Assembly (NCBI GenBank): GCA_035499005.1
Contig: DATJZQ010000158.1
Location: 3,364-67,363, forward strand
Reading direction: 5' to 3'
From: Burkholderiales bacterium
GTDB taxonomy: Bacteria; Pseudomonadota; Gammaproteobacteria; Burkholderiales; SHXO01
DNA: 64,000 nt
Numbering within the stretch: position 1 is the first letter of the stretch; the number at the start of each line of letters is the position of its first letter. The notes beneath the pieces are model-generated. The model saw only the letters and a list, made by a program, of their open reading frames with translations, did no database searches and was not told the origin of the DNA. Positions 5,880-20,270 of the stretch are shown here, in pieces. The position numbers were made by a program, and so were the translations under genes.

Positions 5880-6314
5880 TCAGCGCGGCTTGAGATTGCG
5901 GATGTAGACGACGATCTGCTTGATCTGGTCGTCGGTGAACACTCCGCCGAAAGCCGCCATGCGTCCGGGCTTGCCGAACTTGATGCGCTCGAAGATCTGC
6001 TCGTCGGTCTTCTCGGTGCCCATCAGCTGAGGCCCTTTGCCTGCCCTGCGCCCGCCGTCCTCGTGACAGAAGCCGCAGATGTTGCTGAACGCACCGTGAG
6101 CGCTGAACTCCGGCGCCTTCGCCGGCTCAGACTGGTCCGCGGTCTTGGTCTGCGCTGGCTGGCCAGCGTCTTTGGGTGTCTCGTAGCGCGTCATCGGTGT
6201 CGCGGGCTTGGTGTCGTCGGCCGCGGCGCTACAAGCCGCGAGAGCGAGGCACACTGCCGTCGCGGACACGGCGTGGTGGACCGCACTACGCGCTGCCGCC
6301 TGCAGACTCGTCAT
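5880..6314 (-). CDS. Class I c-type cytochrome, probable lipoprotein; likely electron acceptor of the adjacent PQQ dehydrogenase
   Basis: ORF 144 aa. Lipobox-like LALAAC after a signal sequence, single heme motif CGFCH, distal Met in GKPGRMAAF. Lies 93 nt downstream of the PQQ dehydrogenase on the same strand. Confidence 0.8.
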   Translation of the reverse strand: MTSLQAAARSAVHHAVSATAVCLALAACSAAADDTKPATPMTRYETPKDAGQPAQTKTADQSEPAKAPEFSAHGAFSNICGFCHEDGGRRAGKGPQLMGTEKTDEQIFERIKFGKPGRMAAFGGVFTDDQIKQIVVYIRNLKPR

Positions 6315-6407
6315 CTCGAATCTCCTCTGAAGCGATATTTTATCCCACCATAAAAAAGAGGCGGGGAAGATTCCCCGCCTCCGATGTGCAGCGCGTTTGC
6401 GGCGAAA

Positions 6408-8147
6408 TTACGGCAGCGCAAACACTTTGAGGACGCCGGCGTCCTTCGGATAGCTCGCGTACGGTTCGCCGAACCATTCGCCGTAGCCATCGCCGACCAG
6501 GCTGCCCCACCCGGTTACCACCGCAATGTACTGCTTGCCCTTCGCGGTGTACGTGATGATGCCGCCGTTGTGGCCCATGCCGTTCTGGTGACCCCACAGC
6601 AGCTTACCGTTGCTCGCGTCGTAGGCGCGCAGTACTCCATCCGCGCCCGGCACGAACAGCAGGTTGCCGCCGGTGGTGAGCAGGCTGGCGTGCGGCGGTA
6701 CGTCATAGTGGATGCTGAACGCGACCTTGCCGGTGATCGGATCGCGCCCATCGACGTGGCCGTACATGCGCTCTTCGCCCTTGGCCGGCACGAACTTGAA
6801 GTCCGCGCCGATGTTGAGTTGCGCCATCGGCTCCAGCACCGGGGTGGTCTTCACCACCTCGAGGTCGATACACCACTCGTAGCCGACGCGGTAGAACAGC
6901 TTGGTCTTCGGATTGTAGGAACCCGAGTTCCAGCTCAAACCGCCGGCGATGGCCGGGCACAGGTTCTCGTGCTTGCCCTCGCGCAGGTCGCGGCGTCCCA
7001 CCAGCGTGCCGTCGTCCTTGATGGTCTGAACGAAGTTGATGTTCTTGACGAACGGCCAGACCTTCTGCGGGTTGGCGTTGCGGTCGTACACGAACACGAA
7101 GCCGCCCTTGTTCGGGTGGACCACGTACTTCTTGCCGCCCTGGTCGATGAACATGAACTCGCCCATCGCGCTGTCGAAGTCCCACGCGTCATGCGGCAGC
7201 TCCTGCCAATAGCCCTTGAGCTTGCCGGTGTCGGGATCGAGCAGCACGACCGAGGTGGTGTACAGGTTCACGCCGGGCCGCGGGCCGTTGTTCTGCCAGT
7301 CGGGACCGGCCCAGTCGTACAGAGGTGCCGGGTTGCCGGTTCCCCACCACACGGAGTTGGTCTCTGGATCGTACGAGCCCGCCATCCAGCCGCCCCCGCC
7401 GCCCGTCTTCCACGAGTCGCCGCCCCAGGTGTTGCGCGAATCCCCGTTGTCCTCATTGCCACCCACCGTGAAGAACTGCCACACCTGCTGGCCGCTCTTG
7501 GCGTCGACGCCGAAGATGGGACCGCGATAGGGCCACTCGCCGCCCTGGGCGCCGATGATCACCTTGTCCTTGACCACCAGCGGAGCGCCGGTGAAGCCCA
7601 CAGTCAGCTTCTCGGAGTTGATCAGCTTCGTTTCCCAGTTGAGCTTGCCGGTCTTCGCGTCGACCGCGACCAGCTTGCCGTCCAGGGTGCCCATGTAGAT
7701 GTTGCCGTAACCCGCTGCGATGCCGCGGTTATAGGGCGAGTGGGTCTGCTTGGCGACCAGATCTTCGTTGAGCTTCTGCTTGTAGGTCCACAGCATCTGC
7801 CCGGTCGCCCCGTCCAGCGCGTAGAGCTGGTTGTACGAGCTCGTGTAGTAGACCACGCCGTCGATGGCCAGGGGGAAGCTCTGCAGCCCACGATAGGCGC
7901 GCGAGGCGACGTGCGACCAGGCCTCCTGCAGCCGTCCCACGTTCGCGGTGTTGATCTGATCGAGCGCGCTGTAATGCCACGACTTGTAGGTGCCGTGATA
8001 CATCATCCAGTTGCCCGGCTCGCCCGCCGCATTCAACAGACGATCGTAAGTCACGTCGGCGGCACCGGCCTGCGCTGCGACGCAGGCGAACGCCGCTGCC
8101 GCAACGGCCTTGACGCCGCCGGCAACCTGGTTCTTCCATCGTTTCAT
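6408..8147 (-). CDS. PQQ-dependent dehydrogenase, methanol/ethanol family (8-bladed propeller quinoprotein)
   Basis: ORF 579 aa with signal peptide. Family blocks GAQGGEWPYRGP, TWGGDSWKTGGGGGWMAGSYDPETNSVWWGTGNPAP, LPHDAWDFDS, TTGGNLLFVPGADGVLRAYDASNGKLLW. See findings for DxD and missing Cys-Cys. Confidence 0.92.
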   Translation of the reverse strand: MKRWKNQVAGGVKAVAAAAFACVAAQAGAADVTYDRLLNAAGEPGNWMMYHGTYKSWHYSALDQINTANVGRLQEAWSHVASRAYRGLQSFPLAIDGVVYYTSSYNQLYALDGATGQMLWTYKQKLNEDLVAKQTHSPYNRGIAAGYGNIYMGTLDGKLVAVDAKTGKLNWETKLINSEKLTVGFTGAPLVVKDKVIIGAQGGEWPYRGPIFGVDAKSGQQVWQFFTVGGNEDNGDSRNTWGGDSWKTGGGGGWMAGSYDPETNSVWWGTGNPAPLYDWAGPDWQNNGPRPGVNLYTTSVVLLDPDTGKLKGYWQELPHDAWDFDSAMGEFMFIDQGGKKYVVHPNKGGFVFVYDRNANPQKVWPFVKNINFVQTIKDDGTLVGRRDLREGKHENLCPAIAGGLSWNSGSYNPKTKLFYRVGYEWCIDLEVVKTTPVLEPMAQLNIGADFKFVPAKGEERMYGHVDGRDPITGKVAFSIHYDVPPHASLLTTGGNLLFVPGADGVLRAYDASNGKLLWGHQNGMGHNGGIITYTAKGKQYIAVVTGWGSLVGDGYGEWFGEPYASYPKDAGVLKVFALP

Positions 8148-8376
8148 AAGTCTCTCCCGATATTGAGTCTTCGCACGACAACTGAAATCACTTTTTGTTC
8201 AACTCGGGACTTGCCGTCGGCGCCTTCGGTTTTATGGTTTTGTGCTGCAGGAAAGTGCGCTGCGGAAAATCCGGACGAGACTCTAGTCCCAGTCGCACTC
8301 CTTTGCAAGCGAAGTCGTCGAAGCGGGAGAACCACGCTGTTCTTGGGTCGTCGCACGCCGGCGTTTTCATAGGACA

Positions 8377-8850
8377 ATGAGCGCCTTGACCGTCAGTTTT
8401 CAAGCAAGGCTAAGCGCGTTGGCAACCATCCGAGTCACCCCGGTGCTCGCTCTGGACGAGCGCGATCTGCAGGAGACCTTCGTGCGTTCGCCCGGACCGG
8501 GTGGACAGAACGTCAATAAGGTTTCCACCGCGGTGCAGCTGCGCTTCGCGCTGGAACAGAGCGCGGACCTGACGGCGGAGGTTCGGCGCAGGCTCCGCGC
8601 GTTGGCAGGCCGGCGCGTCACGGCGGACGGATGGCTCGTCATCGAGGCTAACCGCTTCCGCAGCCAGGCGCGCAACCGGGAAGACGCGCGCGCCAGGCTG
8701 GTCGAGCTCGTACGCAAGGCTGCGCACCCGCCCAAGCCGCGTCGCCCCACCCGGCCCAGCGTGGCATCCAAGGAGCGCCGGCTGCGGGACAAGCGCGCCC
8801 GCGCTCGCACCAAGTTGGCGCGCGGACGGAGTGCTCTGGATCAGGGCTAG
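8377..8850 (+). CDS. arfB: Alternative ribosome-rescue factor ArfB (peptidyl-tRNA hydrolase, GGQ family)
   Basis: ORF 157 aa. GPGGQNVNKVSTAVQLRF GGQ motif plus basic C-terminal tail RRPTRPSVASKERRLRDKRARARTK. True start may be the in-frame TTG at 8419 (MATIRVTPV...). Confidence 0.85.
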   Translation: MSALTVSFQARLSALATIRVTPVLALDERDLQETFVRSPGPGGQNVNKVSTAVQLRFALEQSADLTAEVRRRLRALAGRRVTADGWLVIEANRFRSQARNREDARARLVELVRKAAHPPKPRRPTRPSVASKERRLRDKRARARTKLARGRSALDQG

Positions 8851-8884: not shown

Positions 8885-9370
8885 TCATCGGTGCTCGGGG
8901 AGAATGCGCTGAAGCAAGGCGACCAGCGTCTCGCGCTCCGCGGCAGTCAGATTGCTGACCAGGCGCTTCTCATGGCGCGCGACCCGCTGTTTCAGCCTCT
9001 TCAAAAGTGCCGTGCCGGCGGCCGTCAGCGAAATACCGTTCACACGGCGATCCTCGACTGAGGCGCGGCGCGCCACCAGCCCGCGCGCCTCGAGCTTGTC
9101 CAGCGCCGGCACCAGGCTGGAGCGGTCGAGGCGGGCCGCGTTTGCCAGCTCGGTCTGCTTCAGGCCCGGATTGGCTTCGATGATGACCAGCATGCCGAAC
9201 AGGCCCGGGCTCATATCGAGCTCACCCATCGCCGCGGCGAAATCGTCGAAGATGGCGCGCTGCGCCAGGCGCAGATGGTAGCCGAGCAAACCCGGCAGCA
9301 GGCCGAGCTTGGCGCCCCCGGCGGCAGAGGCCGCGAGCGGACGAGCTTTGCGCCTAGGCGTTTCCGACAT
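8885..9370 (-). CDS. MarR-family transcriptional regulator
   Basis: ORF 161 aa. Winged-helix pattern typical of MarR (LKQTELANAARLDRSSLVPALDKLEARGLVARRASVEDRRVNGISLTAAG). Divergent from the catabolic operon starting at 9477. Confidence 0.85.
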   Translation of the reverse strand: MSETPRRKARPLAASAAGGAKLGLLPGLLGYHLRLAQRAIFDDFAAAMGELDMSPGLFGMLVIIEANPGLKQTELANAARLDRSSLVPALDKLEARGLVARRASVEDRRVNGISLTAAGTALLKRLKQRVARHEKRLVSNLTAAERETLVALLQRILPEHR

Positions 9371-9382
9371 CCGGTGTTTTGT

Positions 9383-9412
9383 TTGACATCCAACAATTGG
9401 AGGTGTTACTTT
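9383..9412 (+). promoter_or_regulatory. Candidate sigma-70 promoter (TTGACA-N18-TACTTT) with embedded palindrome TCCAA-N3-TTGGA (9389-9401), possible MarR operator
   Basis: Read directly in the 106-bp marR/reductase divergent spacer. Perfect -35 hexamer at 9383-9388, weak -10 at 9407-9412, 13-bp inverted repeat between them. Confidence 0.35.
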
Positions 9413-9476
9413 GTTTCATCCTAGCGGAAATCGCCGCCGCTGACTATCGTGTCTTCCTGATCACCCTCGCAGCGCC

Positions 9477-10535
9477 ATGACTTGGACCATCACCCTGGCC
9501 GGCGATCCGCAGAGCGCACCAGCGGAGGATGGCGAAACCGTGCTGGACGCGCTGCTGCGCCACGGCGTAGGGTTCGCTTACAGCTGCCAGTCGGGCAACT
9601 GCGGCACCTGCAAGTGCGAATACGTCGCGGGCGACATCCTGGAGCTCGAGTACTCGGAGCATGCGCTGTCAGCGGCCGAGCGCAGCCGCGGTGTGATCCT
9701 CGCCTGCCGGACGCAGGTGTGGGGCGACGTCGAGATCCGCCGCCTCACGGCCGAGGACTTCGTGATGCATCCCTCGCGAGTGATGCAATGCAGGGTGGCG
9801 GAGATGAGCTTCGCAACGCACGATGTGCTGCGGCTGCGGCTCGCGATCGAGTCGGGCGGTCCTTACACGTTTTCCGCCGGACAGTTCGCCAAGCTCGAGT
9901 TCGGCTTCGCCCCGAATGTCCCGCGCGACTATTCAATGGCCAATCGGCCGGACGATGCGATGCTGGAGTTTCACATCCGCTGCATGGCCGGCGGGGTGAG
10001 CAGCCATCTTCCGGCGCAGCTCAGGGTGGGCGATCCGGTGCGCGTCTCAGGTCCGTTCGGCACGTCGTATCTGCGCGAACAGCACCCCGGACCGCTGATC
10101 GCCGTCGCGGGCGGCACCGGCCTCGCCCCGATCCGCTCCATCATCGCCGCCGCGCTCGCCAAGGGTATGGTGCAGCCGCTTCACCTCTACTTCGGCGTGC
10201 GCGCAGAGCGCGACGTGTATGGCGAGGCGGAATTGCGCGCATGGCAGGCCCAGCATCCGCAGCTGAAAGCGCACGTGGTGCTGTCCGATCAGCCGCAGCC
10301 CGGTGACGTGCACGAGACCGCCGCCACTCCGGCGCGGCGCTACGGCCTGGTGACGGACGCTGTGCGCGGTGATTTCGCCAGCTTTGCCGGGTTTCAGGCC
10401 TATCTCGCCGGGCCGCCGGCGATGGTGGACGCCGCCACGGAGCTGCTGCGCGCGGGCGGGATTGCGGCGCGCGACATCCACGCGGACGCCTTCTACAGAG
10501 CCATCGACCAGACAGCGTCGGGGGCGGTGGCATGA
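9477..10535 (+). CDS. Ferredoxin-NAD(P)H oxidoreductase: N-terminal plant-type [2Fe-2S] + FNR-like FAD/NAD domains (oxygenase reductase component)
   Basis: ORF 352 aa. CQSGNCGTCKC...ILACR cluster motif, RDYSMAN flavin motif, AVAGGTGLAPIRS NAD(P)-binding motif. Domain order as in NagAa/phenol-hydroxylase-type reductases, opposite to PaaE. Confidence 0.88.
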   Translation: MTWTITLAGDPQSAPAEDGETVLDALLRHGVGFAYSCQSGNCGTCKCEYVAGDILELEYSEHALSAAERSRGVILACRTQVWGDVEIRRLTAEDFVMHPSRVMQCRVAEMSFATHDVLRLRLAIESGGPYTFSAGQFAKLEFGFAPNVPRDYSMANRPDDAMLEFHIRCMAGGVSSHLPAQLRVGDPVRVSGPFGTSYLREQHPGPLIAVAGGTGLAPIRSIIAAALAKGMVQPLHLYFGVRAERDVYGEAELRAWQAQHPQLKAHVVLSDQPQPGDVHETAATPARRYGLVTDAVRGDFASFAGFQAYLAGPPAMVDAATELLRAGGIAARDIHADAFYRAIDQTASGAVA

Positions 10536-11464
10536 GCCGTCCGTTCAGCCTCGAAGGGCAAGTCGCTATCGTGAGCGGGGGCGCGCGCGGCATCGGCTAC
10601 GCCGTCGCGCAAGAGCTGCTCCGGCTCGGCGCGCGCGTGACACTCGTCGATCCGGGCGTCTCGATAGCAGGCGAGGAGGCCGATGCCGACAGCGTGCAAA
10701 CTGCCGCTGCCGCCCTGGGGGCCAACGCGTTGGCTGTGCCTGAAGACATCGCCGCGCCGGGAGCGGCGCAGACGGCGGTGCAGCTGACGCTCGAGCGCTT
10801 CGGCGCGCTGGACATCGTGATCAACAATGCGGCCATTCTGCGCGACGGCTTCATCTTCAAGTCGCAGCGCAGCGATTGGGAGCGCGTCATCCAGACCAAC
10901 CTCACCGGCGCGTGGGCCTTGCTCGCCGCAGCGACGCCGGTCCTGCGCGATGCAGTGAAGAGCGGCCGCGCGCCAGGGCGGATCGTCAACATGACTTCGA
11001 CCGCTGGACTGTACGGCAACTACGCTCAGTCAGCTTATGCGGCGGCAAAGGCGGGTCTGGTCGGGCTCACACGCGCTGTAGCGCTGGACATGGCGCGCTC
11101 CAAGGTGAACTGCAACGCCGTTGCGCCGTTTGCCGCCACGCGCGTGACCGAGTCCATCGCGCCGGCCAACCCGGCGCAACAGGCATACAAGGAGCGCGCG
11201 CTGAAAATCCCGGCCGGCCATGCCGCGCGCCTGGTCGGGTGGCTCTGCTCGCCGGGCTGCGATGTCACCGGCCAGATCTTCGGAGTGCGCGGGCGCGAGG
11301 TGTTTCTGTTTTCCCAGCCGCGGCCCGCAGTACGCGTGCTGACCGCGCCATTGGCGGACCTGACGCCGGAGTCACTTGACGCCGCCATCAGCATCGCGGT
11401 GCAGGATCAGCTGGTCGAGCTCACCTCCGACCTCGAAGCATTCGACAGCGAACCCATCCTCTAG
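10532..11464 (+). CDS. SDR-family oxidoreductase (hydroxyacyl-CoA-dehydrogenase-like, with C-terminal extension)
   Basis: ORF 310 aa. VSGGARGIG cofactor motif, NNAAI, catalytic S...YAAAK. ATGA start/stop overlap with the reductase gene. Confidence 0.85.
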   Translation: MSRPFSLEGQVAIVSGGARGIGYAVAQELLRLGARVTLVDPGVSIAGEEADADSVQTAAAALGANALAVPEDIAAPGAAQTAVQLTLERFGALDIVINNAAILRDGFIFKSQRSDWERVIQTNLTGAWALLAAATPVLRDAVKSGRAPGRIVNMTSTAGLYGNYAQSAYAAAKAGLVGLTRAVALDMARSKVNCNAVAPFAATRVTESIAPANPAQQAYKERALKIPAGHAARLVGWLCSPGCDVTGQIFGVRGREVFLFSQPRPAVRVLTAPLADLTPESLDAAISIAVQDQLVELTSDLEAFDSEPIL

Positions 11465-11466
11465 CT

Positions 11467-12195
11467 ATGGAGCGCAAGATGTCCACCACGGAAGCCACGC
11501 AAATCCAGATCCCCGAGGTGAAGACGGCGGCCGAGCTGGCCCAGCAGCCGGAGGAGTATCGCACCGCCGTGCAGAAGATCGTCATCAGCCACGCGGTCAA
11601 CGAGCTGTACGGCGCGCAGGTGTTCGACGAGCCGGCCATCAAGCTCGCACCGACTCCCTACGCCAAGTGGCTGACCTGCCGGGTGGCGATGGAGGAGTAT
11701 CATCATCACGTCCGCTTCAAGGCCTTGGCGGACGAGATCGGCGTCGAGCCGGAGCGCATGGATCCGCAGCACAAGCGCCCGCTGTCGATTTTCAGCTTCG
11801 CGCTCAGGACCTGGCCGGAATTCTGCGTGATCAAAGCCATCGCGGACTATGCCGAGATCCTGCAGGTGGAGGATCTGCTCCACTGCAGCTTCCATCCGCT
11901 GCGCAATCTGGCACGCATTACCATGCCGGAGGAGAAGTTCCACGCCAAGTTCGGCAAGGACTTCTGCCTGGACTTGATCCAGCGCGGCAGCGCCGCCGAG
12001 GTCCAGGACGCCATCGACCGCTACTTCCCGATCACGCCCGGTTTTTTCGGAGGCAGCCAGTCCAAGAACAACGAGATCTACCGCAAGTGGAAACTGAAGC
12101 AGCGCAGCAACGAGGAAATGCGGCAGGATTTCCTGACCCGCGTTACCGAGCTGGTTGAACGCGACTTCGGCTTGAAGCTCCCCGCGGTGAACTGA
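11467..12195 (+). CDS. Ferritin-like di-iron oxygenase subunit, PaaA-like (phenylacetyl-CoA epoxidase catalytic-subunit family), minimal 242-aa form
   Basis: ORF 242 aa. E...ExxH...D/E...ExxH ligand pattern visible (NELYG, MEEYHHH, ADYAE, PEEKFH). Block-wise resemblance to E. coli PaaA as I recall it (YRKTLIRQIGQHAHSEIVG / QDEAGH / KEESFHQRQG / DAINRFWWP). Start 2 nt after the SDR stop. Confidence 0.7.
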
Positions 12196-12227
12196 GCTGG
12201 AGCCGATTTGAACGACAGGAGGAGAAC

Positions 12228-13268
12228 ATGACACGAGCGGCCACGGACATCCGCGTGGAGCGCGACGCCTACTATCAGCGCATCGCGCAGGCTAATCTGA
12301 CGCCGCTGTGGGAGGTGATGTCCGCGCTGGTGCCTGAGCAGCCGCGCTCCCCGTGTGTGCCGGCCATCTGGCGCTATCAACAGGTGCGCCCCTGGCTGAT
12401 GGAATCGGGCCGGCTGATCTCGGCCAAGGAAGCCGTTCGGCGCGTGCTGATCCTGAAGAATCCCGGCCTGTCAGGCGCCTCGGCGATCACTCAGTCGCTC
12501 TTTGCCGGACTGCAGCTGATCTTGCCGGGCGAAGTTGCTCCCAGCCACCGCCACACGCAGTCGGCGCTGCGCTTGATCGTCGAAGGCAGTGGCGCGTTCA
12601 CCGCGGTCGAAGGCGAGCGCATCACGATGCACCCGGGCGATTTCATCATCACACCGGCATGGACCTGGCACGACCACGGCAATCCCGGCAGCGAGCCCGT
12701 GGTCTGGCTGGACGGCCTGGACATTCCGCTCGTGCGCTTTCTGGAGGCGGGTTTCCAGGAAAACTATCCGCAGGACTCGCAGCCGGTGGCGCGCCCTGAG
12801 GGCGATGCGCTGGCACGCTACGGCGCCAATCTGCTGCCGGTCGACTACCGGCCGCGCGGTCTTGCATCGCCCGTCTTCGCCTACCCCTATGGGCGGACGC
12901 GCGAGACGCTGGAGCAGCTGCGCTGCAACGGGAAGCCGCATGCGGTGCACGGCTACAAGATGCAGTTCATCAACCCGGCGAGCGGTAGTTACCCGATGCC
13001 CAGCATCGGCGCGTTCGTGCAGCTTCTGCCGGCAGGTTTTCGCGGCGGCGCCTGCCGCTGCACGGACGGGACCGTGTTCCACTGCATCGAGGGTGGGGGC
13101 AGCGTGAGCGTCGGCAGCGAGCGCCTCACGTTCTCTGCACGCGATACGTTCGTGGTTCCCGCGTGGTGTACCCATCGACTCGACGCCGACGGCGAGACGG
13201 TGCTGTTCAGCTTCTCAGATCGCCCGGTGCAGCAGGCGCTCGGACTGTGGCGCGAGGAGCTGAGCTGA
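12228..13268 (+). CDS. Gentisate 1,2-dioxygenase (bicupin)
   Basis: ORF 346 aa. Hallmark block [69 protein letters not shown] upstream. Confidence 0.92.
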
Positions 13269-13319
13269 AGAATTCGCGCCGTTGCAGTTTCCCAACCTTT
13301 TTCCTGGAACCCAGCACCG

Positions 13320-14012
13320 ATGACAAACGCCTTCGTCGTTGACGCGCACCAAACGCCGTCGGTTCCCGTTGCCGGCCAAAAAGGCCGCTTCCCGGTGCAT
13401 CGCATCTACTGCGTCGGGCGCAACTACGCCGCGCACGCGCGCGAGATGGGGAAGGACCCCGAGCGTGAGCCGCCGTTCTTTTTCCTGAAGCCCGCCGACG
13501 CAGTGGTCCCCGAAGGCGGCGAGGTCCACTACCCGCCGGGCACTTCCAACCTGCATCACGAGATCGAACTGGTGGTTGCGCTGCACCGCGGCGGGTTCCA
13601 GATTCCCGCGGCGCGGGCGCTGGACCACGTCTACGGCTACGCGGTCGGCTTGGACATGACGCGCCGGGACCTGCAGTTCCAGGCGCGCGACATGGGACGT
13701 CCATGGGATTTCGGCAAGGCCTTCGACGAGTCGGCGCCGATCACCACCATCTACCCCGTTGCCAGCCACGGGCATCATTTGGCGGGCGCCATTACGCTCT
13801 CGGTCAACGGCGAGCTGCGTCAGCAGGGCGACTTGAAGGACATGATCTGGAACGTTCCGGACACGCTGGCGTTTCTGTCCAATTACTACCGCCTCCAGGC
13901 TGGTGACTTGATCTTCACCGGAACGCCTGCGGGGGTGGGTGCTGTGGTGCGCGGGGACAAGCTGGTGGGCAAGGTCGAGGGTCTCGCCGAGCTCCACGTC
14001 ACCATCATCTGA
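13320..14012 (+). CDS. FAH-family hydrolase, probable fumarylpyruvate hydrolase
   Basis: ORF 230 aa. FAH C-terminal fold motifs (CVGRNYAAHAREMG, HHEIELVVAL, DLIFTGTPAGVG). Sits downstream of gentisate dioxygenase. Confidence 0.85.
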   Translation: MTNAFVVDAHQTPSVPVAGQKGRFPVHRIYCVGRNYAAHAREMGKDPEREPPFFFLKPADAVVPEGGEVHYPPGTSNLHHEIELVVALHRGGFQIPAARALDHVYGYAVGLDMTRRDLQFQARDMGRPWDFGKAFDESAPITTIYPVASHGHHLAGAITLSVNGELRQQGDLKDMIWNVPDTLAFLSNYYRLQAGDLIFTGTPAGVGAVVRGDKLVGKVEGLAELHVTII

Positions 14013-14021
14013 ATCGGCGTC

Positions 14022-14924
14022 GTGGACGCGCGCAAGACCTGGCTCGAAGTCGCGCTCAACGGTCCGTGGGGCCGCGCACGCCAGCCAGGGATCCCGGTGA
14101 GCGTGCGGGACATCGTGGACCAGGCCGCAGCGTGCGTGCGTGCCGGGGCGGCGATCGTGCACGTGCACGCCTACGACGAGTCGAGCGGCGCACCGCGGGA
14201 AAGCGCGGCCGCCTACGCCGCCATCATCGAGGGCATCCGGCGACATGTGGACGCGATCGTCTATCCGACCGTGTCAATTCCCGGCATGGCACACTCGCCC
14301 GTGGACGAAACGCCGCCGCAGCGCTTCGCGGTGCACGAGGAGCTCGCGCAACGCGGCCTGCTGGAGTGGGCGGCGGTCGACCCTGGTTCGCTCAACATCG
14401 CCTCGTACGATGATCTGCGCCAGGACCGCGATGGATTCGTGTACCGCAATCCCGAGCAACATCTGCGCTACGCGCTCGGCCTTGCGGCTCGTTATCGTTT
14501 TCATCCAAGCTACGCGATCTACGAGCCGGGCTTTCTGCGGCTGGGGGCGTCGTTGCACTGGCGCTGCGCCTGTCCGGCTCCCATCTACCGCTTCATGTTT
14601 TCCACGGACTACACCTTTGGGTTCCCCGCCGATGACTACGGTCTCACGGCCTATCTCAAGCTCATGGACCAGGTGGCGCCGGGCGCCAGGTGGATGGTGG
14701 CCGGTCTGGGCGTCGACATCCGGCAACTCGTGCCGCGCGCGGTAGCGGAGGGCGGACACGTCCGCGTGGGTCTGGAGGACGCGTCGCTCGGTTGCGCCCA
14801 GACGAACGTCGAACTGGTGGAGGCGGCCGCTCGCATGATCAATGCCTGTGGCGGCGAGCTGGCGACTGCGGTCGAGGTGCGCGCCGAGCTGCGCGCGGCG
14901 GAGAGGGGCGAGGCGCAGCTATAA
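14022..14924 (+). CDS. Beta-keto acid cleavage enzyme (BKACE / 3-keto-5-aminohexanoate cleavage enzyme family, DUF849)
   Basis: ORF 300 aa, GTG start. Family-like N-terminus WLEVALNG and HVHAYD, VRVGLED blocks as I recall for Kce-type TIM barrels. Confidence 0.75.
   Translation: MDARKTWLEVALNGPWGRARQPGIPVSVRDIVDQAAACVRAGAAIVHVHAYDESSGAPRESAAAYAAIIEGIRRHVDAIVYPTVSIPGMAHSPVDETPPQRFAVHEELAQRGLLEWAAVDPGSLNIASYDDLRQDRDGFVYRNPEQHLRYALGLAARYRFHPSYAIYEPGFLRLGASLHWRCACPAPIYRFMFSTDYTFGFPADDYGLTAYLKLMDQVAPGARWMVAGLGVDIRQLVPRAVAEGGHVRVGLEDASLGCAQTNVELVEAAARMINACGGELATAVEVRAELRAAERGEAQL
14919..14924 (+). promoter_or_regulatory. Perfect TATAAT hexamer 29 nt upstream of the pdxA-family start (candidate -10 box; overlaps BKACE stop codon)
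   Basis: Exact hexamer read in sequence. No convincing -35. Confidence 0.25.
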
Positions 14925-14952
14925 TCGCAGCGATCAGCGATCGGCAAACTTC

Positions 14953-15954
14953 ATGACCTCACCACCCAGAATCGGCATCACGATGGGCGACCCCTCCGGA
15001 GTCGGGCCCGAGATCATCGTCAAGGCGCTGGCGGAGATGTCGCCTGAGCAGCGTTCTGCGTCGGCGGTAGTCGGTGATCTCGATTTCCTCAAGCGCGCAG
15101 AACGCTTGGTGGGTGCGGGCCTCACGTATGCTGAGGCGCCTGAGAGCGCGCGCAACGGCGTCGTTCCGGTGTTCCATGTGCCCAGTCGCGGCTCCGGTCA
15201 GATCCGTGACGGCGAGATCACTGCGGCGGGCGGCGAGGCGGCTTACCAATACGTGGTGAAGGCGGTGGAGCTGGCCCTGGCCGGGACGATCGGGGTGATC
15301 GTCACGGCGCCACTGAACAAAGGTGCGATGCATGCGGCCGGCCACCATTTCGACGGTCACACAGAGCTGCTTGCGCATCTGACCGGCGCCAAGTCGTCCT
15401 TCATGCTGCTCGCGTCGAGCAAGATGTCGGTGGTACACGTATCGACTCACGTCAGCCTGCGGACCGCGACCCAGCGCGCGACGACTGAGCGCGTGCTTGC
15501 CACCATCCGCGCTGGCAGCGACCATTTCAACGCACTCGGCTACGCGCACCCGCGCATCGCCGTGGCCGGACTGAACCCGCATTGCGGCGAAGGCGGCATC
15601 TTCGGCAACGAAGAGATCGACCACATCAATCATGCGGTCGAGCTCGCGCGCCAGCAGGGCATGGACGTCAAGGGCCCGATTTCCGGCGACACCGTGTTCT
15701 ACCGCGCGCTCAAGGGCGAATTCGATCTGGTGGTTGCGCAGTACCACGACCAGGGTCACATCCCGAGCAAGCTCATCGCCTTCGACGAAACCGTGAATGT
15801 CAGCCTCGGACTCCCCATCCGGCGCACGTCGGTCGATCACGGCACCGCATTCGACATCGCGTGGAAAGGCAAAGCCAACCACGTCAACATGCGCGCCGCC
15901 GTGGCTTATGCGCGCATGATGGCCGAGCGCCTGCCCGCGAGCGCGGTGGCCTGA
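14953..15954 (+). CDS. PdxA-family NAD-dependent 4-phospho-hydroxyacid dehydrogenase (PdxA2-like)
   Basis: ORF 14842..15954 trimmed to ATG 14953 (MTSPPRIGITMGDPSGVGPEI...). Family blocks TAPLNK, GHTELLA, HVSTHVSL, AGLNPHCGEGG, YHDQGHIP, RTSVDHGTAFD. Confidence 0.88.
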   Translation: MTSPPRIGITMGDPSGVGPEIIVKALAEMSPEQRSASAVVGDLDFLKRAERLVGAGLTYAEAPESARNGVVPVFHVPSRGSGQIRDGEITAAGGEAAYQYVVKAVELALAGTIGVIVTAPLNKGAMHAAGHHFDGHTELLAHLTGAKSSFMLLASSKMSVVHVSTHVSLRTATQRATTERVLATIRAGSDHFNALGYAHPRIAVAGLNPHCGEGGIFGNEEIDHINHAVELARQQGMDVKGPISGDTVFYRALKGEFDLVVAQYHDQGHIPSKLIAFDETVNVSLGLPIRRTSVDHGTAFDIAWKGKANHVNMRAAVAYARMMAERLPASAVA

Positions 15955-15972
15955 CGGCTGTCGGCCGGCGCG

Positions 15973-17169
15973 ATGGCGGCTGTTCCACGACTCACCATCG
16001 TCGCGGACGATCTCACCGGAGCGATGGATGCCGCCGCGCCGCTCGCGGAGCGCGGCCTGGCGACATGGGTCGTAGCCGACGCCGAGCGCAACGCGTCGCA
16101 GACGCTTCCACCGGCACAGGTGGTGTCCATCAACGCGGCGAGTCGGCATCTACCCAAAGAAGATGCCGCCCAGCGCGTGCGCGCGTTGTCATCCAGGTTG
16201 CTCGATCCCGGCTGCGAGATCCTGATCAAAAAGATCGATTCGACGCTGCGCGGCAACGCGGTGGCGGAAACCCTGGCCCTGTTGGAGGCGAGCGGGCGCG
16301 CCGCGGCGGTCGTGGCGCCTGCGTTTCCGCGACAGGGGCGCACGCTCGTCGCGGGTGTGGTGCACGTCCACGGCGTGCCCCTTGCGCATACCGAGCTCGC
16401 ACGCGATACGCTGTCGCCCCCGCCGGCCGAGCCGTTGCACCTGCTGTTCCGCTCCGCGGCTCCGCAAGACGAAGTGCGTCTGGTCGCACGAGGCGCATCC
16501 GTCGCTTTGTCGCGAGTCGGCCGACGGCAGATCCTCGTGGTCGACGCTGCCAGCGACGACGACCTGCGCAGTACGGTGCGTTCGCTGAGCAGCCAGTTGA
16601 GCGACACCTTGCTGGTGGGCTCGGCGGGGATTTCGGAGGCTGTGGCGCACACTTGCTTCGAGGCGCCCCGGGAGGCACTCGCCGCGCCCGCGGTTAGAGA
16701 GCAAATGGTGTTTGTGGTCGGTTCGCGCACGGAGCAAAGCGCGCAACAGGTGCGCGCACTGATCGAGTCCGGCCGGGCGAGGCTGATCGCTGCACCGGCG
16801 GGCTGCGTAGATCTCTCCGCTGCGCTGGGTGCGCCCGAAGCGCTGCTCGTGATCAAGGCGGAGCCCGGCAGCGGGGCAGACCACACGGATGCCGCGGAGG
16901 TTGCCTGTCGTCTGGCGGACGCGGCGGGGACGCTGATCGAGCGCCAACCGATCGCGGCCCTGGTCGTGACGGGCGGCGACACAGCCTTCGCTGTGCTGCG
17001 GCGTCTGGGCCAGACTACAGTGCAGGTGATGGGTAACCTGCTGCCCGGAATCCCGTTCAGCCGTATTCGATTCGGCATGCGGGAGCTGTGGCTTGTGACG
17101 AAAGCGGGCGGGTTTGGCGCGCGAGACACGTTGGCGACCATCGCGCAGCGGTTGCACGGCGCAGCCTGA
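15973..17169 (+). CDS. Four-carbon acid-sugar kinase family protein (DUF1537; threonate/erythronate/3-oxo-tetronate kinase-like)
   Basis: ORF 398 aa. N-terminal IVADDLTGAMD and KIDSTLRGN blocks and C-terminal VTGGDTA...KAGGFG block typical of DUF1537. Adjacent to its usual PdxA2 partner. Confidence 0.82.
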   Translation: MAAVPRLTIVADDLTGAMDAAAPLAERGLATWVVADAERNASQTLPPAQVVSINAASRHLPKEDAAQRVRALSSRLLDPGCEILIKKIDSTLRGNAVAETLALLEASGRAAAVVAPAFPRQGRTLVAGVVHVHGVPLAHTELARDTLSPPPAEPLHLLFRSAAPQDEVRLVARGASVALSRVGRRQILVVDAASDDDLRSTVRSLSSQLSDTLLVGSAGISEAVAHTCFEAPREALAAPAVREQMVFVVGSRTEQSAQQVRALIESGRARLIAAPAGCVDLSAALGAPEALLVIKAEPGSGADHTDAAEVACRLADAAGTLIERQPIAALVVTGGDTAFAVLRRLGQTTVQVMGNLLPGIPFSRIRFGMRELWLVTKAGGFGARDTLATIAQRLHGAA

Positions 17170-17273
17170 GAACCTCAACGGCCGAAACGGTCTCCAACCG
17201 ACACGACAACCCGTCGGAAGATAGCGGCGACCATGTGTCGGAACCAGCGCAGCTCGCGTGACCCTGCGCAGGC

Positions 17274-17870
17274 ATGACGTGGCGGGAGAGCGAAGGCGTG
17301 AGCGCAAACCGTTGGCACCACTTGCTGGCCCGCGTGGCCGCGGTCGCGATCGTGCTCGCAACGGCCGATGCCGCGTGCGAAGATCGAGTCAGCGTCGAGG
17401 CGCACCGCGAGGGCGAAGCGGTGATTGTCGAAGCGCGCGCCGCGCTGCACGTGGATCTGGCAATCGCGTGGGAGGTGCTCACCGGCTACGACCGGTACCC
17501 GCAGTTCATCCCCGATCTCACCTCCAGCCGCGTGTTGAGCCGCTCGGGCAGCGACGTGGTCGTCGAGCAGAAAGGGCAGCTCGCATTCCTGGTATTTCGC
17601 CTCCCGCTGGAGGTGACTATGAACGTCAGCGAGCGGCCCCGCACCGGCATCAGCTCGCGCGCGATCGGGGGCACTTTTCGGGAGATGACCGGGAGCTACG
17701 AGCTGGCGCAGGCGGGCGAAGACTTGCAGCTCACTTACAGCGGCCGCATGGTGCCGCGCTTCGGGTTGCTCTCGCTCATGGGGACCGCAGCCGTGAAGGC
17801 CGCCGTCGAAAAGCAGTTCGGTGCCCTGGTGCGGGAGATGCAGATCCGCGCTGCCGTGCCGGAAAAGTAA
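17274..17870 (+). CDS. SRPBCC-superfamily (polyketide cyclase/dehydrase-like) protein with N-terminal signal/anchor
   Basis: ORF 198 aa. YDRYPQFIPDL motif characteristic of this fold family. Hydrophobic N-terminal segment LLARVAAVAIVLATADAA. Confidence 0.65.
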   Translation: MTWRESEGVSANRWHHLLARVAAVAIVLATADAACEDRVSVEAHREGEAVIVEARAALHVDLAIAWEVLTGYDRYPQFIPDLTSSRVLSRSGSDVVVEQKGQLAFLVFRLPLEVTMNVSERPRTGISSRAIGGTFREMTGSYELAQAGEDLQLTYSGRMVPRFGLLSLMGTAAVKAAVEKQFGALVREMQIRAAVPEK

Positions 17871-17984
17871 GCCCCGCACTCGAACGTATTGACGGATGCG
17901 TAGTGCCTGGACCCTCAGGCGGCCCGGGGATAGCACATCGGTAGAATGGGCAATTCGCCCCCGTTTCGCACCAGAAGGCCTGGC

Positions 17985-19403
17985 ATGACGTCCGTTCCAT
18001 CTGCGTTCTTGCACCCTGCGAGCGTCGCTTTGGTCGGTGCGGGCGATCGGCTCACGAGCTCCGGAGGAGCCGTGCTGCGCAACCTGGAGCGTTCCGGGTT
18101 TCGAGGCCGCGTCGTCCCCGTGAACCCGAAGGGTGGTCAGCTGTTCGGGCTGCCAGTGGCGCGCTCGCTTGCCGCCGTGTCGCCGCCCTGTGAGCTCACG
18201 GTGATCGTGGTTCGACCGGACGCGATCATGGACGTTGCCCGCGAAGCGGCCGCGAGCGGACACCGCAATCTGCTGATCCTGCCCGGTGGATTCGCCGAAG
18301 GCGGTCAAGAGGCCAAGGCGCGCGACCGTGAGCTGCGCGCGTTGTCTGTGGAGCACGAGCTCATAGTTGGCGGGCCGAACTGCGCCGGGACCATCAACCT
18401 GCTCGATGCGTCAGCGCCGTTCGCCGCCACCTTTCTGCGCGATCTGCCGCGCGGAGGCGGTGTGGCGCTGGTGTCGCAGTCGGGCGCTATCGCGGAGGAG
18501 GTGATCGCCTCCAGCCACCGCCTCGGTATCCCGCTCGGCGCGGTGATTTCGGTGGGCAATGCCATGCACCTCGGGTTGACCGAATACCTCGACGAGCTCG
18601 GTGCGGATTCTGCCTGCAGAGCTATCCTGCTGTACGCGGAATCGTTCGGCGATGTACCGCAGTTTCGCGATATCGCGCGGCGCGTCAGCATGCGCAAACC
18701 GGTCGTCGCGCTGGTAGGCGGGCGCACCGCGCCCGGTCGCCGCGCCGCGTTTCGGCACACCGGCTCCCAGGCGCCCGCCAGCGACGAAGCCGACGCTTTC
18801 TGCGCGGAATGCGGCATGGTGAGGGCAACCAATCTGCGTCGGCTCATGCTCGCTGGAAAAGCATTCGGCGTCCATCCGGGCGGCATCGGGCGGCGCGTAT
18901 TGGTGCTATCCAACTCGGGGGGCCCGGGCGTGCTGTGCACCGATCAGACGGCGCTCGAAGGCCTGGAGCTCCCGGATCTGCCTGCGGCGCTCGCTACCCG
19001 ACTGCGCGGCTCACTTCCGCCGGAAGCGGCCGTGGCCAATCCGCTCGATCTGCTCGCGGACGCGCGCGACGACCGGTTCGCAGACACACTGACGGCCGTG
19101 CTGGAGCACGGTGCAAGCTTCGATGCCATATTGATGATCCACGTCGTTCCCTTCATGGTCGATGGCGGTGCGGTCGTCAGCCGGCTCGCCGCGCTATGCC
19201 GCGGCGCCGCCCTTCCGGTCCTGCACACGATGATGGGCACGCTGGAGCACAGGGCGGAATGGATGGCGGCGATGGAGGCGGCCGGTGTGCCGATGTTCGA
19301 CAGCGCGGAGGACATGGCCGAGGCAGCGGGGCTCCTCGCGCGCTACCGCGCCTTGCGAGACGACCTGAAGGCAGACGTGTCGCGGTCGGGTGAAGCACAG
19401 TGA
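17985..19403 (+). CDS. CoA-binding, ADP-forming acyl-CoA synthetase alpha-like protein (no ATP-grasp domain)
   Basis: ORF 17946..19403. Start placed at second Met (MTSVPSAFLHPASVALVGAG...). CoA-binding Rossmann block VPVNPKG, succinyl-CoA-ligase-like GPNCAGTINL and SQSGA blocks, then a third flavodoxin-like domain (VLSNSGGPGVL). No ATP-grasp signature seen. Confidence 0.75.
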   Translation: MTSVPSAFLHPASVALVGAGDRLTSSGGAVLRNLERSGFRGRVVPVNPKGGQLFGLPVARSLAAVSPPCELTVIVVRPDAIMDVAREAAASGHRNLLILPGGFAEGGQEAKARDRELRALSVEHELIVGGPNCAGTINLLDASAPFAATFLRDLPRGGGVALVSQSGAIAEEVIASSHRLGIPLGAVISVGNAMHLGLTEYLDELGADSACRAILLYAESFGDVPQFRDIARRVSMRKPVVALVGGRTAPGRRAAFRHTGSQAPASDEADAFCAECGMVRATNLRRLMLAGKAFGVHPGGIGRRVLVLSNSGGPGVLCTDQTALEGLELPDLPAALATRLRGSLPPEAAVANPLDLLADARDDRFADTLTAVLEHGASFDAILMIHVVPFMVDGGAVVSRLAALCRGAALPVLHTMMGTLEHRAEWMAAMEAAGVPMFDSAEDMAEAAGLLARYRALRDDLKADVSRSGEAQ

Positions 19404-19429
19404 GATCGAGCGCAGCGGAGGAGATGAAG

Positions 19430-20074
19430 ATGAGACTGTTCGGTTATTGGCGCAGCTCTGCGGCTTACCGGGTGCGCATCGCGCTCGCGCTCAAAGGGCT
19501 CACGTACGAGCACGTGGGCGTCCATCTGGCACGAGGCGAACAGCACCTGCCCGATTTTGCAGCCGTCAATCCGCAGCAGCTGGTACCTGCGTTGCAGGAC
19601 GGTGAGCATCTGCTGTTTCAGTCCCTCGCCATCATCGAGTACCTGGAGGAAACACACCCGCAGCCGCGGCTGTTGCCGACCGATGCGGCCGAGCGCGCCC
19701 GGGTGCGCTCGCTCGCGCAGATCGTGGCCTGCGAGATTCATCCTCTGAACAATCTCAGAGTCCTCAGCTACCTCACCGGCCAGCTCGCCGTTTCCGAGGA
19801 GCAGAAATTGACCTGGTACCGGCATTGGGTGACGACCGGGTTCGCCGCGTTCGAGGAGCGCCTGGGGCGCGAACCGTGGACCGGCCGCTTCTGCCACCGC
19901 GACGCGCCGGGGTTGGCCGACATTGCGCTGGCGCCGCAGATTGCTAATGCCCGGCGCTTCAAGGTTGATTTGACGCCCTTCCCGGTCATTCGCCGCATCA
20001 CCGACGAGTGCATGAAACTCGAGGCGTTTCAGAAGGCGGCGCCAGAGCACCAGCCGGATGCGGACAGGAGCTAG
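19430..20074 (+). CDS. maiA: Maleylpyruvate/maleylacetoacetate isomerase (GST zeta class)
   Basis: ORF 19400..20074 trimmed to ATG 19430, 6 nt after GGAGGAG. MRLFGYWRSSAAYRVRIALALKGL...VNPQQLVPAL...QSLAIIEYLEETHP are zeta-GST hallmarks. Confidence 0.88.
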   Translation: MRLFGYWRSSAAYRVRIALALKGLTYEHVGVHLARGEQHLPDFAAVNPQQLVPALQDGEHLLFQSLAIIEYLEETHPQPRLLPTDAAERARVRSLAQIVACEIHPLNNLRVLSYLTGQLAVSEEQKLTWYRHWVTTGFAAFEERLGREPWTGRFCHRDAPGLADIALAPQIANARRFKVDLTPFPVIRRITDECMKLEAFQKAAPEHQPDADRS

Positions 20075-20270
20075 CCGTGACCGTCCGGTGGCACCAGCGC
20101 GCCCCTTGGCAATTCCGATCGCGGTACAGGGACCGCGCTTTCTTTGTGGGTGCGGGCTAGCATAGAATCCAATTCGGTCCGAGGCACTGCTGCTGGCGAA
20201 ATAGCGGCGGCAGTACCCGCCTCGTCGGTTGCAACGCAAAACTGTGAAATCCTTTCCCGAAGGAATGTGT

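Follow-up and report, generated by a model that had tools for sequence, protein, structure and literature searches.

In a 64-kb stretch of DNA from a Burkholderiales bacterium (the window; all coordinates are window positions), a plus-strand operon at 9477-20074 encodes a complete set of gentisate ring-cleavage enzymes and opens with genes for a reductase, a short-chain dehydrogenase/reductase (SDR) and a stand-alone PaaA-like di-iron protein (together, the trio). From homology and gene context, the operon probably specifies a coenzyme A (CoA)-dependent upper pathway whose gentisate is cleaved by enzymes of the same operon, a reading to which we give a probability of roughly 0.55; all findings reported here are computational. 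The first-pass annotation of this DNA had proposed a non-canonical, possibly CoA-dependent di-iron route to gentisate or gentisyl-CoA, and the proposal now gains support from a conserved gene module, from interchangeable CoA genes and from the CoA-type homology of the proteins. Aerobic catabolism of aromatic compounds runs through a small number of central intermediates, gentisate among them, and to our knowledge the enzymes known to form it are flavoprotein or Rieske hydroxylases. Here an oxygenase of another type is genetically bound to gentisate 1,2-dioxygenase (GDO), together with a dehydrogenase and CoA enzymes, and the arrangement is common in uncultured soil and marine bacteria. The entries into gentisate described up to 2026 are NagGH, 3-hydroxybenzoate 6-hydroxylase, SdgC and PhgA (PMC13215587, PMC11848710), and literature searches returned no paper tying a PaaA-like or di-iron enzyme to gentisate formation.

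The genes of the trio are tightly packed. The reductase gene (9477-10535, plus strand, as are all operon genes) is the first of the operon, the SDR gene (10532-11464) overlaps it by an ATGA at 10532-10535, and the di-iron gene (11467-12195) follows after a gap of 2 nt (11464/11467); the overlap and the short gap indicate predicted translational coupling of the three. The GDO gene (12228-13268) begins 32 nt further on and the gene of an FAH-family hydrolase (13320-14012) after another 51 nt, while the GST-zeta gene (19400-20074), 5.39 kb beyond the FAH gene, overlaps the gene of a CoA-binding protein (17946-19403) by a GTGA at 19400-19403. All genes and junctions named at first pass were recovered in the open reading frame (ORF) map and the junction sequences with the same order, strands and packing, and the family calls hold in Pfam and NCBIfam profile searches of the products. 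The claim that the gentisate lower pathway is complete also stands, with predicted specificities: GDO passes the equivalog model TIGR02272 (538 bits, cutoff 442) and GST-zeta passes TIGR01262 (maiA; 291 bits, cutoff 171), the latter being a predicted maleylpyruvate / maleylacetoacetate isomerase. The FAH hydrolase matches PF01557 (179 bits), falls under the cutoffs of all specific NCBIfam FAH models (PRK10691, 165 bits, cutoff 201) and is probably a fumarylpyruvate hydrolase. The two equivalogs and the FAH-family hydrolase form, within one cluster, a lower pathway of the NagI/NagL/NagK type.

A canonical source of gentisate was sought by a Pfam scan of roughly 40 of the 45 ORFs that a G+C3 filter had listed (such a list can miss genes, and five of its short ORFs, of 111-146 residues, lay outside the scan). 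Among the scanned ORFs there was no flavoprotein 3-hydroxybenzoate 6-hydroxylase, no Rieske oxygenase and no FAD_binding_3-type monooxygenase, and a canonical hydroxylase within the window was rejected on this ground. The remaining scanned ORFs are housekeeping genes (type II secretion system ATPase, FtsK, LolA, MgsA, transaldolase, Ccm, MutS and Suf). The earlier statement that no canonical hydroxylase is encoded here is thereby borne out for the scanned ORFs, the five short ones excepted.

The 242-residue di-iron protein belongs to PF05138 (77 bits, cutoff 28.5), and has the six iron ligands and the ferritin-like four-helix-bundle fold of this family. The six PaaA iron ligands listed in PMC4498308 map to E46, E77, H80, D127, E156 and H159, all of them invariant or nearly so even in relatives of 28-50% identity. 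F109, the equivalent of the substrate-orienting F108 of PaaA, is conserved, as is a Lys at the pocket entrance, and an Arg occupies the place of the 'lysine-bridge' Lys68 of PaaA. PaaA is also the top Foldseek match (TM 0.80-0.82, 26% identity) of the AlphaFold2 model (pLDDT 93.9) and the nearest solved relative by sequence (E ~1e-15, 26%), followed by Sulfolobus SSO1313 (an uncharacterised relative), PaaC and, distantly, BoxB; neither the sequence nor the Foldseek comparison found a solved structure nearer than PaaA. The C-terminal ~65 residues of PaaA are missing from the di-iron protein. No other protein of the cluster is as strongly conserved: the di-iron protein shows 77-94% identity where the neighbouring proteins show 45-70%.

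The databases name this protein a true phenylacetyl-CoA epoxidase subunit (source annotations 'PaaA' or 'phenylacetic acid catabolic protein'). That identification is effectively refuted, as the PaaA equivalog model TIGR02156 gives 85.5 bits, far below its cutoff of 280, the identity to PaaA is only 26-32%, paaB, paaC, paaD, paaG, paaZ and paaK are absent from the window and the related loci (no PaaB, PaaC or PaaD gene being found in the scanned window ORFs or the annotated loci), and the domain order of the reductase is reversed relative to PaaE. What was called "PaaA-like di-iron" at first pass is PaaA-like in family, ligands and fold and fails at the level of the PaaA equivalog.

The reductase contains, by Pfam, Fer2, FAD_binding_6 and NAD_binding_1 with Fer2 N-terminal, which is the order of BenC and MmoC (Fer2, FAD, NAD) and the reverse of PaaE. 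The NCBIfam scores for BenC (175 bits) and MmoC (172 bits) are each under the cutoff, and the boxA model reaches 36.6 bits (cutoff 459). Relatives share its Cys4 motif, RxYS and GGxGxxP, and the protein is a predicted NAD(P)H:[2Fe-2S] reductase. The SDR (310 residues, adh_short, with a conserved C-terminal tail) has as its best PDB match 2et6 (E 7e-64), the yeast MFE-2 (3R)-hydroxyacyl-CoA dehydrogenase, with 17beta-HSD4 next and 1zbq and 1gz6 among the matches, in agreement with the first-pass description of a hydroxyacyl-CoA-dehydrogenase-like SDR. It carries the classical motifs and an intact catalytic tetrad, and GxxRGIG, NNAAI, the catalytic Ser/Tyr-x3-Lys and the Asp after beta2 are conserved at >=97%; the Asp suggests a preference for NAD. 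PRK07791 gives 177 bits (cutoff 373) and no subfamily was assigned. Because of the likeness to MFE-2 dehydrogenase domains and the conserved catalytic and cofactor motifs, the SDR is very likely an active NAD-dependent dehydrogenase, its probable substrate being a beta-hydroxy thioester.

The reductase order bears on a further explanation, namely that the di-iron system is a small multicomponent monooxygenase that hydroxylates free salicylate or 3-hydroxybenzoate, with the CoA enzymes serving another step. The MmoC/BenC order is typical of free-substrate systems, the missing C-terminal 65 residues help to cover the CoA pocket in PaaA, and some related loci show no CoA enzyme. We regard this explanation as highly improbable, since the nearest characterised relatives, PaaA and BoxB, act on CoA esters, ligases and thioesterases recur among the relatives, and the SDR is of the hydroxyacyl-CoA type.

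To place the trio in a wider context, 160 related loci (80 from genomes and 80 from metagenomes, of soil and marine origin, G+C 0.30-0.74; designated here by L-numbers) were annotated by tblastn with the window proteins and with proteins from variant loci. Their di-iron proteins are 54-94% identical to that of the window. In this neighbourhood survey, which had been proposed at first pass, the start of GDO lies no more than 450 nt beyond the di-iron gene in 97 of 132 loci, the SDR gene ends within 200 nt before the di-iron gene in 123 of 125, and the reductase gene is found in 103 of 108. The pairing of SDR and di-iron protein persists at 44% / 49% identity in L083, from an organism of 46% G+C. 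The reductase, SDR and di-iron genes are a near-invariant unit, usually abutting GDO in widely divergent genomes. Among the 76 loci with wide flanks, the survey recovered GDO in 61, the FAH hydrolase in 55, GST-zeta in 34, MarR in 65, the alpha-type CoA synthetase (the CoA-binding protein, see below) in 45, an AMP-forming ligase in 7, a 4HBT thioesterase in 11 and an orphan protein of ~170 residues in 51.

The constancy of the SDR has to be set against the main rival explanation, in which the di-iron protein and the reductase alone hydroxylate salicylyl-CoA at C5 or 3-hydroxybenzoyl-CoA at C6, in the manner of SdgC, and the SDR is a structural substitute for PaaC, keeps the hydroquinone reduced or acts elsewhere. 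This would be the simplest chemistry; the top match of the AMP-forming ligase in the marine locus L116 is a 3-hydroxybenzoate-CoA ligase, L156, L082 and the nonribosomal peptide synthetase (NRPS)-context locus L084 have no SDR, and PaaA requires PaaC for solubility (PMC4498308), of which there is none here. An SDR that adjoins in 123 of 125 loci, with translational coupling and with Ser/Tyr/Lys and cofactor motifs conserved at >=97%, is unexpected for a purely structural subunit, and we consider this rival unlikely.

The most direct pointers to a CoA-dependent route come from the genes for CoA-handling enzymes. The window's CoA-binding protein (485 residues) contains CoA_binding_2, Succ_CoA_lig and Ligase_CoA_2 (Pfam) and aligns end to end with its best PDB matches, the alpha subunits 2csu and 4xyl. 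It keeps the phosphohistidine motif (RHTGS, aligned to SHTGS of 2csu/4xyl), which is conserved among relatives, and scores 323 bits on TIGR02717, below 567. With these alpha-subunit domains and the phosphohistidine, which agree with the earlier call of a CoA-binding acyl-CoA-synthetase-like gene, and with no ATP-grasp (beta) part, it is a predicted alpha-subunit-only homologue of the NDP-forming acyl-CoA synthetases (ACDs). The beta subunit is unlinked in some archaeal ACDs. In the window's case, either the beta subunit is unlinked, or the protein may be a CoA transferase working via acyl-phosphate/phosphohistidine, the latter being pure conjecture. A fused full-length ACD is found in L111 alone, where it accompanies a thioesterase.

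Other loci handle CoA with other enzymes. No AMP-forming aryl-CoA ligase was found in the scanned window ORFs; such ligases are present in relatives, where they appear Fcs-like in some and benzoate-CoA-ligase-like in others. In L070/L071, the trio is followed by GDO, the ~170-residue protein, the FAH hydrolase, an AMP-forming ligase (PRK12582, 849 bits, cutoff 777), a 4HBT thioesterase and GST-zeta, without an alpha-type synthetase. The marine locus L116 (G+C 0.32) has the trio, GDO (530 bits, above the TIGR02272 equivalog cutoff), the ~170-residue protein, a 499-residue AMP-forming ligase and a 4HBT thioesterase, the top matches of its ligase being the 3-hydroxybenzoate-CoA ligase (295 bits) and benzoate-CoA ligase family (264 bits) models, both below cutoff. 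In L161, the order is trio, GDO, ~170-residue protein, FAH hydrolase, alpha-type synthetase, thioesterase and GST-zeta. A thioesterase is the sole CoA enzyme in L077/L078 (trio, ~170-residue protein, thioesterase and GST-zeta, plus a TRAP transporter) and in L087 of the deeper clade, which has kept the di-iron gene and the thioesterase; ligase and thioesterase are both present in L071, L116 and L161. Because the ligases have been replaced non-orthologously and thioesterases recur, as in the logic of the Sdg and Phg pathways, the oxygenase is predicted to act on the thioester, and the swap between non-homologous ligase types is the strongest new evidence that supports oxygenation at this level.

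From the gene identities, the conservation of ligand and catalytic residues, the fold and the genomic associations, we infer substrate and regiochemistry, as well as the SDR step and the release of CoA, as follows. A benzoate-type aromatic acid would be activated to its CoA thioester by the alpha-type NDP-forming acyl-CoA synthetase homologue, acting either together with an ATP-grasp partner whose gene lies elsewhere or, through its phosphohistidine, as a CoA transferase, and by AMP-forming ligases in other lineages. The reductase would pass electrons from NAD(P)H to the PaaA-like di-iron protein, which would oxygenate the ring of the aryl-CoA, and the NAD-type, MFE-2-like SDR would restore aromaticity by oxidising the ring carbinol beta to the thioester, giving gentisyl-CoA. 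We favour a sequence from benzoyl-CoA through a 2,3-epoxide and, by conjugate addition of water, a 2,5-dihydrodiol to gentisyl-CoA, because the obligatory dehydrogenase needs explaining; this sequence would be NADH-neutral, like a Rieske dioxygenase with its diol dehydrogenase. Gentisate would be released by the 4HBT thioesterase in many relatives, and by CoA transfer or another route in the window operon, and would then be converted by GDO, the GST-zeta isomerase and the FAH hydrolase to fumarate and pyruvate.

A number of observations weigh against this reading. There is no ATP-grasp partner in the window or in 165 other loci (tblastn with the beta part of the L111 enzyme), the window operon has no thioesterase, and 22 of the 76 wide-flank loci have no CoA enzyme in the stretch examined, in part through early locus ends. 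The SDR step is a rationalisation, as one hydroxylation of salicylyl-CoA or 3-hydroxybenzoyl-CoA needs no SDR, and no hydratase for the step from epoxide to 2,5-dihydrodiol is assigned in the window. No chemically sensible role in an aromatic pathway was found for the BKACE, PdxA-like and kinase genes that lie inside the operon (described below). The compared loci are not phylogenetically independent, the distant cases being the informative ones, and gene order is weak evidence in the window's lineage, because synteny there spans unrelated flanking genes. Finally, GDO is missing from the vicinity of the trio in 15 of the 76 wide-flank loci, and there is a GDO-less subtype in which the reductase, SDR, di-iron and ~170-residue genes are followed by an alpha/beta hydrolase gene (Abhydrolase_1; L152:9369-10187, L139:9297-10133 and L104:10103-11143), whose product is a candidate epoxide hydrolase, thioesterase or C-C hydrolase.

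The loci without GDO would also fit a different role for the trio, in which it acts on another acyl-CoA (an aliphatic or alicyclic 3-hydroxyacyl-CoA, or a side chain), a canonical hydroxylase elsewhere feeds the gentisate enzymes, and the linkage to the gentisate genes reflects shared regulation or inherited synteny. The amidohydrolase-like and CoxS-like [2Fe-2S] genes that neighbour the di-iron gene in the deeper clade, the reach of the window-lineage synteny into unrelated housekeeping genes and the unrelated BKACE, PdxA and kinase genes inside the operon speak for this role. Against it, GDO comes straight after the di-iron gene in 97 of 132 loci, some of them in genomes of 30% G+C that are otherwise non-syntenic, and aryl-acid-type CoA ligases and 4HBT thioesterases co-occur with the trio; we judge it quite improbable.

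The proposed CoA-dependent route to gentisate was compared with known systems. With PaaABC(D)E it has in common the PF05138 di-iron subunit, the six ligands, the substrate-orienting Phe, the fold (TM ~0.8), an NAD(P)H/[2Fe-2S]/flavin reductase partner and a CoA-thioester context. However, the di-iron protein is only 26-30% identical to PaaA, has 242 instead of ~309 residues and lacks the C-terminal lid, PaaB, PaaC and PaaD are absent, the reductase order is reversed and an SDR is paired with the oxygenase; moreover, PaaABC(D)E leads to oxepin hydrolysis and beta-oxidation, whereas the operon described here leads to gentisate cleavage. BoxAB resembles it in the di-iron oxygenation of a benzoyl-type CoA ester without a PaaC-like partner, and BoxB is a precedent for the proposed epoxide step. 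Unlike the di-iron protein, BoxB has ~475 residues, and the similarity between the two is marginal (E 0.02, 17.6 bits; TMq 0.64), so that the di-iron protein does not have the features of a BoxB family member; BoxA is a [4Fe-4S] flavoprotein, and the Box product is cleaved hydrolytically by BoxC and not re-aromatised.

In the SdgABC(D) pathway for salicylate (Streptomyces WA46) and the PhgABC pathway for 4-hydroxybenzoate (Brevibacillus), the acid is converted to the aryl-CoA, then to gentisyl-CoA, and then to gentisate, the substrate of GDO. SdgC and PhgA are flavoproteins. The likeness lies in the clustering of ligase, thioesterase and GDO genes, as seen in relatives of the present locus, and in the release of gentisate from gentisyl-CoA by a thioesterase; the difference is that the hydroxylase there is the product of a single gene, whereas here a di-iron protein, a separate reductase and an SDR take its place, and the scanned window ORFs include neither the ligase/4HBT thioesterase genes nor the single-component hydroxylase of these pathways. 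PhgC, PhgB and PhgA suffice in E. coli, and PhgA works as a single gene (PMC11848710). The Nag/Mhb pathways have an identical lower pathway of GDO (NagI), GST-zeta (NagL) and FAH hydrolase (NagK), but their Rieske or flavoprotein hydroxylase has no counterpart among the scanned window ORFs, which instead include CoA enzymes. The two-subunit ACDs (4xyl, 2csu) match the alpha-type protein end to end with the phosphohistidine kept, but no ATP-grasp beta gene adjoins the alpha-type gene in the loci that carry it (including 45 of the 76 wide-flank loci). Taken together, the comparison points to an undescribed route that combines an aryl-CoA di-iron oxygenase with CoA-dependent formation of gentisate.

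A more specific version of this route is tentative, and we hold it to be doubtful as a whole: the system would be a third class of aryl-CoA di-iron oxygenases after PaaABCE and BoxAB, in which a hydroxylase of 240 residues with an MmoC-type reductase epoxidises benzoyl-CoA and an obligatory SDR re-aromatises the 2,5-dihydrodiol-CoA. The orphan 170-residue protein would help in most lineages, and in the window's lineage the alpha-only ACD would recycle CoA as a phosphohistidine-dependent transferase. If this were true, benzoate would be converted to gentisate in an NADH-neutral, 'dioxygenase-like' manner at the thioester level, which would explain the source of gentisate in abundant uncultured GDO carriers, namely alphaproteobacteria of the sea and Burkholderiales of the soil. 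A CoA-dependent path from benzoate to gentisate has long been suspected in haloarchaea, and it too would find an explanation. CoA-synthetase and thioesterase genes have reportedly been implicated in the gentisate route of Haloferax sp. D1227. This strain breaks down benzoate, cinnamate and phenylpropionate by way of gentisate (PMC4005966). A 2026 preprint on SAR116 bacterioplankton describes expressed GDO genes and aryl-CoA ligases, with PaaA-type genes unmentioned. If the module is as it appears, it would correct a systematic mis-annotation as 'PaaA', give models of aromatic-carbon turnover, in soil as in the ocean, a further pathway, and offer a compact three-protein system for the para-dihydroxylation of aromatic acids.

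The di-iron family matches ~2,000 database proteins. The best 120 matches are all 80-92% identical and carry automatic 'PaaA' names only, a library clustered at 50% identity contains only 399 representatives at E <=1e-3, and there are few full-length relatives near 50% identity before the PaaA-level zone at 30% is reached. A tblastn search of 72,556 plasmids returned only true PaaA, at <=32% identity. All named members are metagenome-assembled genomes (MAGs), from Burkholderiales, Rhodospirillales/Rhodospirillaceae, Polyangiaceae and a Tara Oceans 'Alphaproteobacteria bacterium', and cluster look-ups likewise gave MAGs only, with no cultured relatives. One cluster at 90% identity has 283 members, the most widespread of which is found on 120 contigs, including Tara Oceans samples; the marine alphaproteobacterial members are low in G+C.

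In the orphan family (~170-185 residues), certain W, F, G and K positions are invariant and the C-terminus bears the motif GRWPLG. Its gene lies at L071:9719-10240, L077:8709-9248 and L116:9756-10304 and in ~80 other loci, stands, in 51 of the 76 wide-flank loci, directly 3' of GDO or the di-iron gene, and is absent from the window, whose closest relatives have lost it. Searches of Pfam, NCBIfam and the PDB gave no match for the protein, and profile comparison showed no similarity to the di-iron family.

At L084:2833-7872, a 49%-identical di-iron homologue without an SDR is part of a biosynthetic cluster of high G+C, where it adjoins an NRPS module, an uncharacterised 205-residue protein, an AMP-binding enzyme and a fused GATase/chorismate-binding gene (anthranilate- or ADC-synthase-like), which suggests that the family may also tailor aryl thioesters in natural-product synthesis. 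In the deepest clade, L087 and L092, whose di-iron proteins are 54-58% identical to that of the window, other neighbours are seen, identified only by eye from the translations: a CoxS/HcrC-like [2Fe-2S] small subunit of a molybdenum hydroxylase at L092:2101-2601, and an amidohydrolase-like gene plus a 4HBT-like thioesterase at L087:480-1589.

The locus had been labelled an island at first pass, and this label does not hold. G+C is uniform across the window (0.62-0.68), and gene order, including housekeeping neighbours, is retained in ~60 related MAGs; a genomic island is ruled out by the flat G+C and the syntenic flanks, and because of these two features the locus is a resident chromosomal operon. 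On the marR side, the flank (5880-8850) holds genes for a cytochrome c (5880-6314, minus strand), a pyrroloquinoline quinone (PQQ)-dependent dehydrogenase (6408-8147, minus strand) and a 157-residue RF-1-domain protein (8377-8850, plus strand). These are syntenic with the operon in most Burkholderiales relatives, which shows vertical inheritance of the locus. No convincing terminator was found on the plus strand within 9477-20074, and Rfam and tRNA scans gave no match inside the operon; a terminator-like hairpin followed by a T-run at 20120-20137 (plus strand) marks its probable end.

Four genes in the 5.4-kb stretch between the FAH and CoA-binding genes, none of which had been named at first pass, have no assigned role. 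The BKACE gene (14022-14924; PF05853, 193 bits) begins 9 nt after the FAH gene, the PdxA-like gene (14950-15954) 25 nt later, and the DUF1537 kinase gene (15973-17169) after a further 18 nt. The PdxA-like product (PF04166, 330 bits; TIGR00557, 350 bits, cutoff 290) is a predicted PdxA-family NAD-dependent dehydrogenase and reaches 318 bits, below 583, on the D-threonate-4-phosphate dehydrogenase model; the kinase, of the four-carbon acid-sugar type (SBD_N + NBD_C), reaches 198 bits, below 450, on the D-threonate kinase model. The two look like a D-threonate-type module, both being below the equivalog cutoffs. The BKACE-PdxA-kinase block (14022-17169) occurs in 39-42 of the 76 wide-flank loci, all of the window's Burkholderiales lineage, and is absent from the remote and marine variants; because of this absence outside one lineage we treat it as an embedded module. 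The SRPBCC gene (17274-17870; Polyketide_cyc, PF03364, 44 bits) follows the kinase gene after 104 nt and precedes the CoA-binding gene by 75 nt. Its product has a hydrophobic N-terminus, is found in only 9 of the 76 wide-flank loci and is probably outside the cytoplasmic pathway. Elsewhere in the window, a DAHL-domain histidine kinase gene (49268-51076) is followed by the gene (51108-53024) of a 638-residue protein in which a Ser/Thr protein kinase domain is fused to response-regulator receiver domains.

The marR gene (8885-9370, minus strand) is separated from the divergent reductase gene by a spacer of 106 nt. Its product has a winged helix-turn-helix domain (PF01047, 50 bits); the top NCBIfam match, the resveratrol-responsive Saro_0803 family, gives 98 bits, far under its cutoff of 200, and was rejected as a clue to the substrate. 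A promoter scan and an inverted-repeat finder returned nothing in this spacer, and comparison across loci alone revealed an 18-bp dyad, TTGTTTGA-CA-TCCAACAA (= TTGTTTGACATCCAACAA), at 9379-9396, which overlaps a perfect -35 hexamer (TTGACA, 9383-9388). With <=3 mismatches allowed, the dyad precedes the reductase gene in 61 of 99 loci and does not occur in a 2.65-Mb control made up of the remaining locus sequence, and it is a perfect 8+2+8 palindrome in L053, L077, L078 and L080. The palindrome at 9389-9401 (TCCAAcaaTTGGA) noted at first pass is real, but comprises only the right half of the dyad plus flanking sequence. Lying in the divergent promoter, the conserved dyad is the probable MarR operator, with binding predicted from sequence, and MarR would repress the operon there. 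In L005, the spacer contains ~5 tandem copies of a ~21-nt unit (GGCGTCATCAA(T/C)GTTCC-like), ~30-130 nt upstream of the reductase gene, and these repeats shift the operator to 171 nt from the start codon.

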